This document shows positions 47,043-51,816 of a stretch of DNA of 64,000 nt, one piece after another; within the stretch, counting starts at the first letter, position 1, and every line of letters begins with the position of its first letter. Under the pieces are notes generated by a model. The model saw only the letters and a list, made by a program, of their open reading frames with translations. It was not told where the DNA came from and searched no databases. Both the position numbers and the translations under genes were made by a program. The DNA is from Candidatus Eiseniibacteriota bacterium. Its GTDB lineage: Bacteria; Eisenbacteria; RBG-16-71-46; JABDJR01. Where the stretch lies: NCBI GenBank assembly GCA_963762255.1, contig CAVXKA010000001.1:992001-1056000 (forward strand). The letters are read 5' to 3'.

Positions 47043-47663
47043 GTGTCCGCAGGCTCTTGGTTCGAGGCCCCGTCGCGCGAGCGGCGGGGCCTTTCCTCTT
47101 CGCGCCCTGGATGGCTCCCCCGATGCGTCCTCGGTGTGCTTCTCGTCGCGGTTGGGCTATTACCGGCTCAAGCGGCGCAGGCCGACGCACCGAACTCCCC
47201 GCGATTCGGCAGGGATGTTGCGGGCAGGTGGGGCATCGGGATGCTCTCCGCAGATATCCCGATCGGGGTTCGTCACCACTTCGATCACAGGATAGGAGTG
47301 GAGACCGGGATCGGTCTCGCGACCCGCTCCACCGACGGCTCGTCCCGGACCGACTTTGCCCTTGAAGGCGCTTTGCTGTACGCGCTGGCCCCCGGGGATC
47401 GGACGAACTTCTATCTCCGACCCTCCGCCGGGTTCCTCAGCGAGCAGCGAGCAGATGGAACCTACTCGACCATCGTGCTCGGCGCGGGGCTCCTCTTCGA
47501 AGTCTTTCTGACTCGCGATCTCTCCGTCTCCGCGGCCCAACGTCTGTCGATCGATTTTGTGGGCCCGCCTCCAGGTGACGGCCCGGCCTCAGACGATCGA
47601 GTCACAATCATGCTCCGCGGGGAGCGGTGGCCGCGGCTGGGCTTCGTCTACTACTTGCCCTAG
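47043..47663 (+). CDS. Second, paralogous outer-membrane beta-barrel protein
   Basis: Aligns with the upstream gene (DVAGRWGIG/DVTGRFGLG; FEVFLTRDLSVSAA/FEVFVTDDFSVSAA); ends LGFVYYLP; start uncertain. Confidence 0.7.
   Translation: MSAGSWFEAPSRERRGLSSSRPGWLPRCVLGVLLVAVGLLPAQAAQADAPNSPRFGRDVAGRWGIGMLSADIPIGVRHHFDHRIGVETGIGLATRSTDGSSRTDFALEGALLYALAPGDRTNFYLRPSAGFLSEQRADGTYSTIVLGAGLLFEVFLTRDLSVSAAQRLSIDFVGPPPGDGPASDDRVTIMLRGERWPRLGFVYYLP
47064..47100 (+). terminator. Intrinsic terminator between the two beta-barrel genes
   Basis: AGGCCCCGTCGC-GCGA-GCGGCGGGGCCT then TTCCTCTT. Confidence 0.65.
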
Positions 47664-47724
47664 GTGGAGATCGGGTGGCTCGACGGGGACAGTTAGCCGT
47701 GGGGTGATCGATCGGTAGCCGCTG

Positions 47725-47760
47725 ACAAAAAGTTTGGGGCACCCGGCTTTCGGGTGCCCC
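47725..47760 (-). terminator. Intrinsic terminator closing the putative ncRNA
   Basis: Perfect 10-bp stem GGGGCACCCG-AAAGC-CGGGTGCCCC followed by AAACTTTTTGT on the minus strand. Confidence 0.65.
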
Positions 47761-48162
47761 TACGGCGTCCACAAGAGCGGGCTTGTATACTCTTGCGACG
47801 CGCGATCCCCCCCTCAGGGATCAGGTTGGCCCCCGCCGTCCGCGCCGTCGTCCAAGAACGAGCTAGACCTTATTGGGAGGCATCCCAGGCCAAGCGGGCG
47901 CTTGCAGTGCGAACCCACCAGACGGTTCGCGATCGTCGGGAGCCAGTCGAGAGGATCGTCTCGGCCACCTTCGCGGCCGTCGGACCCAAACCTTCTTTGC
48001 CGTGATGCGCTCCCCAACGGCCTTGCAGAGAAGGCCGCGTGGGTGGCTCGAAAGGTGGCTGCCTCTTCACCTCGCGAGCCACCCTGCCGGGGTTGGAGAG
48101 TGGCACTGCGGCTTTTTGGTGCTGAAGCTGCTTCCCTCTTCCGAGAGTCTCGCTGCTTCGAC
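47725..48162 (-). ncRNA. Putative sigma-54-dependent structured non-coding RNA (~440 nt), family unrecognised
   Basis: Consensus sigma-54 promoter upstream, terminator downstream, about 10 hairpins, no credible CDS. Confidence 0.6.
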
Positions 48163-48171
48163 GTCCTGTAT

Positions 48172-48188
48172 TCGCAACCTACGTGCCA
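48172..48188 (-). promoter_or_regulatory. Sigma-54 -24/-12 promoter
   Basis: TGGCACGTAGGTTGCGA matches TGGCAC-N5-TTGC. Confidence 0.8.
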
Positions 48189-48228
48189 TGCTCGGAATCG
48201 GACCCGTCCAATCTCGTAATCTATTATC

Positions 48229-48241
48229 AATCAATGAGTTA
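48229..48241. promoter_or_regulatory. IHF-type binding site
   Basis: AATCAATGAGTTA is a perfect match to WATCAA-N4-TTR, located between promoter and enhancer. Confidence 0.65.
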
Positions 48242-48296
48242 GTCTCTAGCTCCGGAGTCCTTGCCGGGCGGGCTGCCGGGTCGGCGCCGGACTCCG

Positions 48297-48380
48297 GTGG
48301 GTACGGCGAAACCATCTCGACGACGACCGCACCTGTAATTCATTACAGGACAATGAGTTATTCGTGGGTACGGCGTACCC
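48297..48380. promoter_or_regulatory. Putative upstream activator sequences
   Basis: GTGGGTACGGCG at 48297 and 48364; GGGTACG-G-CGTACCC perfect palindrome; CCTGTAAT-TC-ATTACAGG palindrome between them. Confidence 0.55.
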
Positions 48381-48472
48381 GTCAAACTGGACGTTGGGAA
48401 TCGTGGTAGTAACCGTTCGACGACTGCCCTGTCACGCTGGCGAGCGCTAGGATCGTCCCACCGAGGAGACGC

Positions 48473-49144
48473 ATGCCGGACTGGAATGAACTCTTCCGAG
48501 ACGATCGAAATGTCATCGAGAGCCCCGAGCCCATCGTGCTGGAGCTTGTTGCCACCCTCGCCGCGCGCTCACGAGTGCTCGATCTCGGTTGTGGAGCCGG
48601 TCGCCACCTGACCTTGCTTGCCGCGGCTTCCCACCGCGCGGTCGGGGTCGACGTGGCAACCGAGGGCCTTGCGCGATGCCGACGCCGACTCGAGGTGGAG
48701 ACCCTGCGGGCGAACCTCGCCCGGGCGGACTTCCGCCGTCCGCTGCCATTCCGCGATGCCTCATTTGACGCCGTGCTCGCCATCAAATCGATCAACCATG
48801 CGCGGCCCGAAGAGGTGACGCTGGCGTTCGCCGAGGCCATGCGTGTCCTACAGGTTGGTGGGAGGTTCGTCGCGAGCGTGATCGCGTCCACCGACGCTCG
48901 CTGCGGTGACGGGCACGAAATCGCGGAGCGCACCTTCGTGCATGACCGGCCTCCGGAAGAAGGGGTCGTACACCATTACTTCACGGAAGCTGAACTGAGA
49001 AACCTGCTTGGCCCGTGCGCATTCGTTGATCTGTTTCTCGTCGAGCGCTACGTGGCTCCCGAAGAGCCGATCTTCGGGCAGTACCGGTTTCGGGCTGGGG
49101 CGGCGCCCTTCTTCAGGCACTGGTGCTGTCGCGCCATACGCTAG
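48473..49144 (+). CDS. Class I SAM-dependent methyltransferase
   Basis: VLDLGCGAGRH, LPFRDASFDAV, RVLQVGG; SD GAGGAG. Confidence 0.88.
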   Translation: MPDWNELFRDDRNVIESPEPIVLELVATLAARSRVLDLGCGAGRHLTLLAAASHRAVGVDVATEGLARCRRRLEVETLRANLARADFRRPLPFRDASFDAVLAIKSINHARPEEVTLAFAEAMRVLQVGGRFVASVIASTDARCGDGHEIAERTFVHDRPPEEGVVHHYFTEAELRNLLGPCAFVDLFLVERYVAPEEPIFGQYRFRAGAAPFFRHWCCRAIR

Positions 49145-49172
49145 CGCGCAGGCCTGTTTCAGGCCGCATCAC

Positions 49173-49333
49173 TGTTCCAAGTTGAGACAGCACCTCTGTT
49201 TCGGATTGAATCAGAATCGCGTTGCGGCTTGCGCTCCAATGTGGGACGGGGCCTATGGCGGCGGCTAATGCTCTATAAAATAATGAGTTAACAGCCATTT
49301 AGCTCGCGGCCAGGAAGTGGCACGGCGGCTGCA
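49173..49333 (+). promoter_or_regulatory. Sigma-54 promoter, IHF-like site and UAS of the chaperone operon
   Basis: TGGCACGGCGGCTGCA (49318-49333); TGT-N11-ACA at 49173-49189 with weaker copies at 49197 and 49232; AT-rich 25-mer 49266-49290. Confidence 0.7.
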
Positions 49334-49452
49334 ATTGGGGGTGCCGTACATTGAGGTGGGCATTGGAAAGCTCGCCTCTGAAGTCATGATTCCATACAAT
49401 CAACTGCCTCGCTCCGGCCGCGCCGGGGCAGGCCATCCGGAGGAAGAGAGCG

Positions 49453-49899
49453 ATGGCCATCGTACATTGGAGACCGATGGGTGATCTGGTCACTGTGCAG
49501 GACGAGATGAACCGCGTGTTCGAGGATCTGTGGCGCCGCAGCCCGCGGTCCGGCTCCCCCGGTTCGGCCGCGGCATGGTGGCCCTCGATCGATGTCCAGG
49601 AGACACAAAGCGAGTTCAGGCTCGTGGCGGAACTGCCCGGCCTCAAGCGCGATCATGTCAAAATCTCGCTGACAGACAACGTGCTGACGCTGCGCGGCGA
49701 GAAGAAGTCGGAGCAGGATCGGGAGACTGGGAGCTGGCACCAGGCGGAGCGCGCGTACGGCGTGTTCGAGCGGAGTTTTCAGCTCACGTGCCCGGTCGAC
49801 GCATCCAAGGTCAAGGCGAAGTTCGAGGACGGGGTACTCACGATCACGCTGCCCAAGTCCGAGGAGTCGCGCCCTCGTGAGATCAGCATCGAATCCTGA
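49453..49899 (+). CDS. Small heat-shock protein Hsp20
   Basis: PSIDVQET, AELPG, LTLRGEK, ERAYGVFERSF, A.FEDGVLTITLPK. Confidence 0.93.
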   Translation: MAIVHWRPMGDLVTVQDEMNRVFEDLWRRSPRSGSPGSAAAWWPSIDVQETQSEFRLVAELPGLKRDHVKISLTDNVLTLRGEKKSEQDRETGSWHQAERAYGVFERSFQLTCPVDASKVKAKFEDGVLTITLPKSEESRPREISIES

Positions 49900-49920
49900 T
49901 CCACAGCAAAGGTGACGAAC

Positions 49921-51816
49921 ATGGGAAAGATTATCGGAATCGACCTCGGAACCACTAACTCCTGCGTCGCCGTCATGGAGGGCGGCGAGCCGGTGGTGAT
50001 CCCCAACTCCGAAGGCGGTCGCACGACTCCTTCGGTGGTGGCCTTCGCCAAGAACGGAGAGAGGCTGGTGGGTCAGGTGGCCAAGAGGCAAGCCATCACG
50101 AACCCCACGAACACCGTCTATTCGATCAAGCGCTTCATGGGGCGCGCGTACGACGAGGTGAAGAACGAGTCCTCGATGGTGCCCTACGAGATCGTGGCGC
50201 ACGGAAGCGGGCAGGTTTCCGTCAAGGCGGGCGACCGCGAATCCACGCCGCCGGAGATCTCGGCCATGATCCTTCAGAAGATGAAGCAGACGGCGGAGGA
50301 CTACCTTGGCCAGAAGGTGACCGAGGCCATCATCACCGTCCCCGCGTACTTCAACGACTCGCAGCGGCAGGCCACCAAGGACGCCGGCCGCATAGCCGGT
50401 CTCGACGTCAAGCGCATCATCAACGAGCCGACCGCGGCCGCGCTGGCGTACGGGTTGGACCGCAAGAAGGACGAAAAGATCGCGGTGTACGACCTGGGCG
50501 GCGGCACCTTCGACATCTCCATCCTCGAGATCGGGGACGGCGTGTTCGAGGTGAAGTCGACCAACGGAGACACCCATCTGGGCGGAGACGACTTCGATCA
50601 TCGGATCATTCAGTGGCTGGTGGAGGAGTTCCGCAAGGCGGAGGGGATCGACCTGAGCAAGGACCCCATGGCGCTGCAGCGGCTCAAGGAGGGAGCGGAA
50701 AAGGCCAAGATCGAGCTGTCGACCACGATGCAGAGCGACATCAACCTCCCGTTCATCACCGCCGACCAGAACGGCCCCAAGCACCTGAACGTGAATCTCA
50801 CCCGGGCGAAGTTCGAGCAGCTCGTGGACGATCTCATTCAGCGCACGGTGGAGCCCTGCCGGAAGGCAATCGCCGATGCCAACCTCAAGCCGAGTCAGAT
50901 CGACGAGGTGGTGCTGGTCGGTGGGTCCACCCGCATTCCCAAGGTGCAACAGCTCGTCAAGGAACTCTTCGAGAAGGAGCCGCATCGCGGCATCAACCCG
51001 GACGAGGTCGTGGCAGTCGGCGCCGCCATTCAGGGCGGCGTTCTGGCCGGCGACGTGAAGGACGTGCTCCTGCTCGACGTGACCCCGCTTTCGCTCGGGA
51101 TCGAGACGCTGGGCGGAGTGATGACGAAGCTCATCGAGCGCAACACCACCATTCCGACCAAGCGCGCGGAGATCTTCTCCACCGCCAGCGACAGCCAGAC
51201 CGCGGTGGACATCAAGGTCTTCCAGGGTGAACGGCCGATGGCTGCCGGCAACAAGCTCATCGGATCGTTCCAGCTCGTGGGGATCCCGCCCGCACCGCGC
51301 GGGGTACCGCAGGTCGAAGTCACGTTCGACATCGACGCCAACGGTATCCTCAGCGTGTCGGCGCGCGACAAGGCCACCGGGAAGGAACAGAGCATCAAGA
51401 TACAGGCCTCCTCGGGGCTCTCCGAGCAGGACATCCAGCAGATGGTGAAGGACGCCGAGTCCAACGCGGCAGACGATCAGCGTCGGCGCGAAGAGGTCGA
51501 GGCCCGCAACAACGCGGACAATCTGGCCTATCAGGTCGAGAAGCTTCTCAAGGAGAACGGGGACAAGCTCGACGCCGAGACGCGGGCCAAGGTGGACGCC
51601 GGCGTGCAGCGGGTTCGCGAGGCGCTCAAGGGTTCGGATGTGGGCGAGATCAAGTCGTCGACCGACGCGCTGCAACTGGTCTTCCATGCCGCCACCCAGC
51701 AGATGTACCAGTCTGCGGGAGGGGCCGCCGGCCCGAGCGGGAACGAGTCACCGGGGGACGGCGGCAAGGGCAACAAGGGCTCGGTGGACGCCGATTTCGA
51801 GGTCGTGGACGAATGA
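49921..51816 (+). CDS. dnaK: Chaperone DnaK
   Basis: [49 protein letters not shown]. Confidence 0.98.

Follow-up and report, generated by a model that had tools for sequence, protein, structure and literature searches.

We describe a gene for a structured RNA of about 435 nucleotides (nt) on a 64-kb stretch of DNA from a Candidatus Eiseniibacteriota bacterium (contig CAVXKA010000001.1, positions 992,001 to 1,056,000; the whole stretch is referred to below as the window). The gene lies on the minus strand between a sigma-54 promoter and an intrinsic terminator, and we are highly confident that it is a real noncoding RNA gene of the sigma-54 type. Direct support comes from its conservation, its covarying structure, the lack of a coding signal, the architecture of its promoter, upstream activating sites, and terminator, and its presence in RNA libraries. 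From this support we infer dependence on sigma-54 and on an enhancer-binding protein (EBP), the position of the transcription start, action in trans, and binding to protein. The whole account, in which an independent noncoding RNA gene is activated by an EBP and its ∼435-nt product acts in trans, most likely as a protein-binding RNA, seems to us somewhat better than an even bet. The original prediction, a model's reading of the sequence, had called this an undescribed large regulatory RNA; we keep "regulatory" as an interpretation of its role.

Boundaries, homologues, and RNA-library evidence

The promoter has the sequence TGGCACGTAGGTTGCG at 48188 to 48173 on the minus strand, with −24 TGGCAC and −12 TTGC elements at the canonical spacing (TGGCAC-N5-TTGC). 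Because the C of the −12 GC lies at 48174, transcription would be expected to start (+1) near 48162. The terminator (47726 to 47760, minus strand) consists of a stem of 10 pairs, 9 of them G-C, around a 5-nt loop (47760 to 47736), followed by AAACTTTTTG; with its T tract, the terminator extends to 47726. The predicted transcript, defined by the span of similarity to relatives, a 421-nt contig from an RNA library, and the putative +1, covers 47726 to 48162 on the minus strand (∼437 nt). Upstream, a class I methyltransferase gene (48473 to 49144) is divergent from the RNA gene, and downstream a beta-barrel outer-membrane gene (47043 to 47663) is convergent with it; both are on the plus strand, and neither makes use of the RNA transcript. 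The downstream gene is also convergent in loci L024 and L034, and the RNA gene is single copy in the window's genome; thus, we regard it as a stand-alone gene.

A homology search across related metagenome-assembled genomes (MAGs), which had been suggested together with the original prediction, yielded 16 distinct sequences including that of the window, 9 from MAGs of one Candidatus Eisenbacteria order and 7 from metagenome contigs (one metagenome contig was identical to a MAG locus and was not counted separately). Full-length matches (70 to 81% identity) extended over query positions 73 to 533, which correspond to 48188 to 47728, so that they start on the promoter's first base and stop where the terminator ends. 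The RNA ranged in length from 397 to 438 nt (counted over alignment columns 27 to 520). The minus-strand promoter and the 10-bp hairpin with its U tract (47760 to 47725), both of which had been predicted, proved to be present and conserved: each of the 16 homologues carried exactly one −24/−12 site, at the same position, and each retained a hairpin followed by a T run. Within the terminator stem, 4 of the 10 pairs changed on both sides, and one of the two families that hold the RNA (f2) has a different stem sequence.

We searched the window's genome and 60 relatives (61 genomes) for sequence similarity and found the RNA in 6 of the 7 genomes of the family to which the window belongs (f1) and in both genomes of its sister family f2; one marginal 40-nt match outside these families was not confirmed by covariance model. 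A covariance model built from the 3′ core of the RNA (R1) matched the window's genome and 8 relatives (f1, 6/7 in the class sample or 6/6 in the phylum sample; f2, 2/2), and the sole R1-negative f1 genome was 75% complete. Outside f1 and f2, the model matched none of 142 genomes of other families in each of two overlapping class and phylum samples, under strict filters that may lose weak matches. We also used the invariant stretches of the 3′ part of the RNA (47763 to 47821) as a pattern for scans of species genomes and metagenomes. The exact pattern of two invariant stretches was found at 8 loci among 185,579 species genomes, which are the 8 relatives as matched by their promoter sequences, and in 8 metagenome contigs; viral contigs gave 0 matches. 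A phage or mobile origin was rejected given these 0 viral matches, the single copy, and conserved synteny. Further, in 20 genomes of other families, the ∼2.6 kb preceding dnaK contained no divergent minus-strand sigma-54 site that would mark a diverged RNA at the same place. From these searches, the RNA appears to be confined to one order of the uncultured phylum Eisenbacteria.

Part of the stretch occurs in 16 sequencing runs on record as RNA. Of 24 runs in all, we aligned four (X1, X2, X3, and X6, from three studies) to 47200 to 48800; small shares in other runs were not counted as evidence. A 421-nt metatranscriptome contig from X1 lies wholly on 47729 to 48149, with 6 differences and no loose end, and spans 96% of the predicted transcript. 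X2 contributed a 263-nt contig on 47809 to 48071 (1 difference), X3 contributed 226 nt on 47729 to 47954 followed by 73 nt unlike the window, and X6 contributed 329 nt on 47817 to 48145 plus a 29-nt loose end. The X3 and X6 contigs run into loose ends at 47729 and 48145; contig ends are therefore no guide to where the transcript starts or stops. The flanks had no cover in X1 and X2, which we did not count as evidence, and carried short contigs on the flanking genes in X3 and X6.

Fold, coding potential, and comparison with known RNA families

The 438-nt interval from 47725 to 48162 has a folding energy of −221.1 kcal/mol, compared with −187.2 ± 6.5 in shuffles (z = −5.21; 0 of 100 shuffles as low). 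A consensus fold of the 16-sequence alignment (A4), computed with RNAalifold, contained 104 pairs and 1628 cells. Standard pairs filled 92.3% of these cells versus 86.4 ± 0.4% in shuffles, and 40 of the 104 pairs changed on both sides versus 19.3 ± 2.8 in shuffles, with none of 500 shuffles reaching 40.

Read from its 5′ end (all features on the minus strand), the predicted fold opens with a hairpin (H1/H2; 48123 to 48160) that has a GGAA loop. The stem of this hairpin had been proposed originally, and its pairing held up (83.3% and 87.5% of cells paired), but it showed little covariation, with one both-sided change per helix. The 5′ domain (48034 to 48112) has a closing helix, H3 (GCCGC/GCGGC; 5 of 6 pairs changed on both sides), an invariant ACUCUCCAACCCCGGC at 48101 to 48086, and a covarying hairpin at 48084 to 48041 with the invariant loop GAGGCAGCC. 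Another of the proposed stems, GGGUGGCUCG/CGAGCCACCC (H5), was supported, as 13 of its 16 pairs changed on both sides. Next comes a region of variable hairpins (47946 to 48033) that is not alignable and measures 47 to 98 nt among homologues, and then a 3′ multihelix domain (47827 to 47945; H7, H8, H10, and H11) that is closed by a 14-pair helix and includes an invariant GGGAUGCCUCCC at 47886 to 47875. Changes on both sides affected 8 of 14 pairs in H7, 4 of 6 in H8, and 3 of 8 in H10; H11 is invariant. The final segment (47763 to 47821) consists of an invariant hairpin, H12 (AUCCCU-GAGGG-GGGGAU), and of H13 with the invariant CAAGCCCG in its loop. H5, H3, H7, and H8 appear to be the strongest helices, and many loop and junction nucleotides of the RNA are invariant.

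Other stems of the original prediction had mixed fates. The stem GCGUC-CAAGAG/CUCUUG-GACGC was supported; among its 15 pairs, 1 changed on both sides and 4 on one side, while the other 10 are invariant. UGGGA/UCCCA and GAUCCC/GGGAUC are invariant, and covariation therefore has nothing to act on. The proposed closing helix CUCUCCAAC/GUUGGGGAG was found as aligned only in the window; as only 8 of the 16 sequences have a GGGGUUGGA-like partner strand in the corresponding position, this closure does not hold generally. The 5′ strand of the proposed helix never varies and is also able to pair with an invariant G run (−13.8 to −14.5 kcal/mol in 16/16). GGCCUU/AAGGCC and CGGCC/GGCCG fall in the nonalignable region of 47 to 98 nt and are not conserved as proposed, and GCGAACC/GGUUCGC and CAAGCG/CGCUUG are missing from the consensus fold. 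A covariation scan for pseudoknots and tertiary pairs found nothing beyond the nested helices; its candidates paired invariant with invariant positions only. One such candidate is a long-range contact between GAGGCA in the H5 loop and UGCCUC in H11, invariant in 16/16.

The RNA interval has no conserved reading frame and no codon periodicity and is noncoding. A 78-amino-acid frame with a GTG start (47870 to 48106) had been given as the only open reading frame (ORF) contained in it; other ORFs also touch the interval, and none of the four overlapping ORFs had a Pfam match. The broader claim that the interval encodes no protein, including the test of this particular frame, was borne out. The ends of the ORFs vary among the 16 homologues, and a pair of near-identical genomes differs by a 1-nt indel in midsequence. 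Variable states were distributed evenly over the three phases (179/169/186; P = 0.66), compared with 123/112/251 in the neighboring methyltransferase gene (P = 1e-16). Moreover, 269 of 292 gap runs in the RNA alignment were not multiples of 3, and the invariant blocks show no change at any of the three codon positions.

No known family accounted for the RNA. Searches against Rfam 15 (4227 models, gathering thresholds) returned 0 matches in the 64-kb window and 0 in the 16 homologous loci (102,430 bases). The best match in 47300 to 48700 had an E value of 1.2 and scored 14.5 bits, where the threshold is 39. Rfam includes GlmY/GlmZ, Qrr, CrcZ, 6S, OLE, GOLLD, ROOL, raiA, and HEARO. The prediction that this is an undescribed RNA without the hallmarks of tmRNA, RNase P RNA, or 6S RNA agrees with these results. 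A housekeeping RNA was rejected, since RNase P RNA, tmRNA, signal recognition particle (SRP) RNA, and two 6S matches are located elsewhere in the genome. In the literature we found no paper on this RNA; supplementary motif lists of RNA discovery papers (e.g., PMC11109978) were outside this search and could hold the motif.

We also compared the RNA with the two best-known types of protein decoy. GGA motifs that are fully unpaired in the consensus fold numbered 0 to 5 per sequence among the 16 sequences, and CsrA/RsmA (PF02599) had 0 matches in the 93.6%-complete genome, which led us to reject a CsrB/RsmZ-type decoy. Likewise, the AANAANAA motif was absent from 15 of the 16 sequences and present once in the other, and Hfq (PF17209) had 0 matches in the same genome, so a CrcZ-type decoy was rejected as well. 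The earlier statement that multiple GGA loops and A-rich tracts are lacking was thus accurate. In sum, we consider this RNA family to be new but of a known kind, combining a trans-acting RNA controlled by sigma-54 and an EBP with a large orphan structured RNA.

Control region and possible mode of action

Sigma-54 promoters have upstream activating sites ∼100 to 200 nt upstream, usually palindromic and paired. A repeat search upstream of the promoter identified two related 20-mers, at 48297 to 48316 and 48364 to 48383. The distal one would be an upstream activating site with the palindrome GGGTACGGCGTACCC, centered at about −211 from +1. The proximal one would be a second such site, centered at about −144, with the half-palindrome GTACCCAC on the minus strand. 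Read by eye, paired TGGrTA-N5-6-TAyCCA palindromes, 66 to 67 nt apart and at a fixed distance from the promoter, are present in all 16 loci, about 125 to 140 and 193 to 207 nt upstream of TGGCAC when loci are anchored at the promoter; a regular expression caught the distal site in 11 and the proximal site in 5 of 12 f1 loci. The two palindromes flank an AT-rich element with AATGAGTTA (48335 to 48363), and another AT-rich element, with ATCAATGAGTTA, lies 28 to 56 nt upstream of the −24 box (48216 to 48244). The latter resembles a bending element of the IHF type, with AT-rich tracts in relatives; we presume its fit to the IHF consensus, which we take to be WATCAANNNNTTR.

The 9-mer AATGAGTTA has 11 copies in this genome of 66.7% G+C, 7 of which have a sigma-54-like site within 200 nt; copies in the window are at 48233 to 48241, 48352 to 48360, and 49282 to 49290. 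In this organism it likely serves promoters of this class generally as an architectural, IHF-like element. The pattern GG[GA]TA-N5-TA[CT]CC, by comparison, has 4 copies in the window's genome, and only the copy at the RNA gene adjoins a sigma-54 site. Because the other 3 copies are not at sigma-54 sites, the RNA may be the only direct target of the activator there. The genome encodes one match to rpoN (PF04552; 216 bits) and 23 matches above 150 bits to EBPs (PF00158). Together, the promoter and the paired upstream palindromes have the architecture expected for control by an EBP, which supports this part of the original prediction in 16/16 loci.

The mechanism that we propose would begin with sigma-54 RNA polymerase on the −24/−12 site at 48188 to 48173, starting transcription only once the EBP is activated. 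EBP oligomers would bind the two palindromes (around −144 and −211) and be looped to the promoter across the AT-rich IHF-like element. The transcript would then begin near 48162, stop at the hairpin and U tract at 47760 to 47726, and fold into the 5′ hairpin, 5′ domain, variable hairpins, 3′ multihelix domain, and two invariant hairpins described above. As the trans-acting output of one signaling pathway, the RNA would bind one or more proteins, as decoy or scaffold, rather than act through a short antisense seed. We favor protein binding over a seed because of the long nonhelical invariant stretches that are kept across the order, in which the neighboring methyltransferase is only 58 to 65% identical, and because of the large size and several domains of the RNA. 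Since CsrA and Hfq were not found and there is no array of GGA loops or A-rich motifs, the known decoy types are excluded. Taken separately, protein binding as the mode of action is plausible, although we put it slightly below an even chance.

It is important to note that several points weigh against this account. By itself, neither boundary is significant in the window: sigma-54-like sites with at most 1 mismatch numbered 2 versus 0.97 expected (at least 2 in 28 of 100 shuffles), and terminator-like sites numbered 2 versus 2.3 expected. When pairing partners were slid by 1 to 3 columns as a control, 13 to 21 pairs changed on both sides and 38 to 49% of cells were paired, a comparison that flatters the fold because a single alignment served both to derive the consensus structure and to score it. 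Cell counts also overstate the number of independent events, since the 16 sequences fall into about 3 clades. The RNA-library contigs give neither strand nor true ends, and DNA may contaminate such libraries; thus, the contigs support expression and do not prove it. No EBP gene was found in the window or adjoining the RNA gene in the 16 loci, the nearest being ∼10 kb away in L033. Finally, the RNA lacks the arrays of repeated binding motifs that known decoy RNAs have, and the candidate partners CsrA and Hfq were not found in a genome that is 93.6% complete.

Other modes of action must be weighed against protein binding. It is possible, if rather unlikely, that the RNA is a base-pairing regulator whose C-rich invariant stretches (UCUCCAACCCC, GCCUCCC, and AUCCCU) act as anti-Shine-Dalgarno-like seeds on GGAG-type sites of several mRNAs and repress their translation, and we hold it similarly doubtful that the remaining RNA then gives stability or fold switching. 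All three stretches are invariant in 16/16, nearby ribosome-binding sites are of the GGAG/GAGG type, and the alternative pairing with the invariant G run could mask or unmask the C-rich stretches. Against this, the RNA has far more invariant sequence than a seed requires, the C-rich stretches lie partly inside predicted helices, Hfq was not found in the genome, and ∼435 nt with several domains is atypical for a seed-type small RNA. A more speculative view, which we judge unlikely, is that the RNA belongs to a novel class of large ornate RNAs and that its invariant loops and junctions build a machine with a defined three-dimensional form, be it a ribozyme, an RNA-only assembly, or a ribonucleoprotein core, whose synthesis is under the control of a dedicated sigma-54 EBP; we give still less credence to such an RNA having its own biochemical role with sigma-54 merely gating its synthesis. 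The size, the several domains, the many invariant nonhelical nucleotides, the invariant GAGGCA/UGCCUC contact, and a narrow distribution like that of other large orphan RNAs would all fit. However, no tertiary pairing is backed by covariation, no conserved protein gene adjoins the RNA in both families, and the RNA is smaller than OLE, GOLLD, or ROOL. It is very improbable that the locus is a small-protein gene or a dual-function RNA encoding a peptide such as that of the 78-amino-acid frame: open frames on both strands are what one expects at 65% G+C, and the missing Pfam matches, variable frame ends, 1-nt indel, mostly non-triplet gaps, lack of third-position excess, and blocks identical at all codon positions all count against it. 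Just as hard to credit is a cis-acting leader, an antisense element, or a divergent housekeeping RNA (6S, RNase P, tmRNA, or SRP). Nothing beyond size and structure speaks for it, and it is contradicted by the terminator in 16/16, the convergent downstream gene in three loci, the absence of a real gene on the opposite strand, and the housekeeping RNAs found elsewhere in the genome.

The neighboring genes, which like the upstream activating sites had gone unnoticed in the original prediction, raise a further alternative, namely, that the RNA is a member of a sigma-54 heat-shock regulon, coinduced with hsp20-dnaK and groES, and has a role in proteotoxic stress. In the window, hsp20 (49453 to 49899) and dnaK (49912 to 51816) are on the plus strand, and the second sigma-54 site of the window (49318 to 49333) begins 135 nt ahead of the hsp20 start codon. 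In 10 of 10 f1 loci that contain hsp20, the RNA gene is divergently oriented to an hsp20-dnaK operon with its own sigma-54 site; the two promoters are 441 to 504 nt apart in the 5 loci where no methyltransferase gene intervenes. Moreover, of 8 genomes of the order, 7 carry a sigma-54 site ahead of the groES orthologue. Yet the enhancer motifs differ, with TGTTTC-N7-GAAACA-like repeats at hsp20 and groES and TGGrTA-N5-6-TAyCCA at the RNA gene. In f2 the RNA is located elsewhere, next to VWA/AAA or subtilase genes, and in G009 dnaK is on a different contig from the RNA gene; we found no protein gene conserved next to the RNA across both families. Conversely, 16 of 20 genomes of other families have a sigma-54 site ahead of (hsp20-)dnaK and no RNA gene. 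Because of the different motifs, the f2 placement, and the genomes with a sigma-54 dnaK but no RNA, the heat-shock link is a minority reading, to which we assign only a slim chance.

The protein-binding RNA that we favor has partial counterparts among known systems. CrcZ of Pseudomonas is a sigma-54- and CbrB-dependent RNA of ∼400 nt that titrates a protein and is the main output of one EBP. The Eisenbacteria RNA is likewise a stand-alone RNA of ∼400 nt with a sigma-54 promoter, upstream activator sites, and an intrinsic terminator; unlike CrcZ, it has no Rfam match and no AANAANAA in 15 of 16 sequences, its genome has no detected Hfq, and it is G+C rich, with a tight fold and covarying helices. 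GlmY, Qrr, and Pxr are sigma-54-dependent small RNAs of ∼100 to 200 nt. They share with this RNA the promoter class and a two-component/EBP pathway in which an RNA gene is the direct target, a control logic known from CbrB-CrcZ, GlrR-GlmY, and LuxO-Qrr. In contrast to them, the RNA is ∼435 nt long with several domains and without an Rfam match in the window or the 16 loci. With OLE, raiA, GOLLD, and ROOL it has in common a large, intricate, conserved structure amid highly conserved nucleotides, a narrow range, and unexplained biochemistry. It differs from them in having no sequence or structure match, in belonging to another phylum, in its own sigma-54 promoter and enhancer sites, and in that no conserved partner gene was seen next to it. 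We propose the same type of action as that of 6S RNA, which is abundant, structured, trans-acting, and protein binding, although the RNA is more than twice as long and has no 6S match, and its genome holds two 6S matches elsewhere.

To our knowledge, well-supported bacterial RNAs of more than 400 nt are few, and each is either elaborate in function or still unsolved. The RNA described here belongs to a phylum without cultured members, and its clear boundaries, covariation, RNA-library evidence, and complete conserved sigma-54 control region make it directly testable. The promoter and the two palindromes could be used to find the activator, whose sensor domain would reveal the signal. With it, one more phylum would join the few known cases of an EBP that has an RNA gene as its main target. 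If the RNA were instead an ornate machine, a signaling pathway would be switching an RNA machine rather than a set of protein genes, which would be unusual for such RNAs.

Sigma-54-linked chaperone genes and other observations

Chaperone genes appear to be sigma-54 dependent across the phylum (window, 49154 to 49333 and 49453 to 51816, plus strand; genome, C1:557423; loci L022 to L037 and L058 to L091). Neither RpoH (above cutoff) nor HrcA was found in the window's genome. A similar enrichment of chaperone genes in the predicted sigma-54 regulons of Bacteroidota and Planctomycetota is reported in one study (PMC12316311). In 6 of 7 loci (within L058 to L065), an inverted repeat, TGCCA-N3-4-GGGCAA, precedes the groES sigma-54 site by about 110 nt, and a related TTGCCCAA-N-TGGCA is present in the groES leader. 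Second copies of groES in f2 have instead a TTAGCACTC-N9-GAGTGC repeat, which we take to be of the CIRCE type.

A 767-amino-acid frame on the minus strand (49384 to 51687), antisense to dnaK (PF00012), matched PF10712 ("NAD-specific glutamate dehydrogenase") with an E value of 3.9e-179. Across loci, the dnaK frame was 69 to 94% identical versus 37 to 65% for the antisense frame; since the dnaK frame is the better conserved, the PF10712 match is best read as an antisense artifact. In-frame TGA codons occur in the dnaK matches of two relatives, with 2 in G007:C28 and 1 in G005:C29. Finally, the second and weaker 6S match in the genome, which is outside the window (C1:103393 to 103588, plus strand; 49.6 bits), starts ∼42 nt after the start of a sigma-54-like TGGCATCACCCCTGCA and may represent a sigma-54-driven 6S paralogue.

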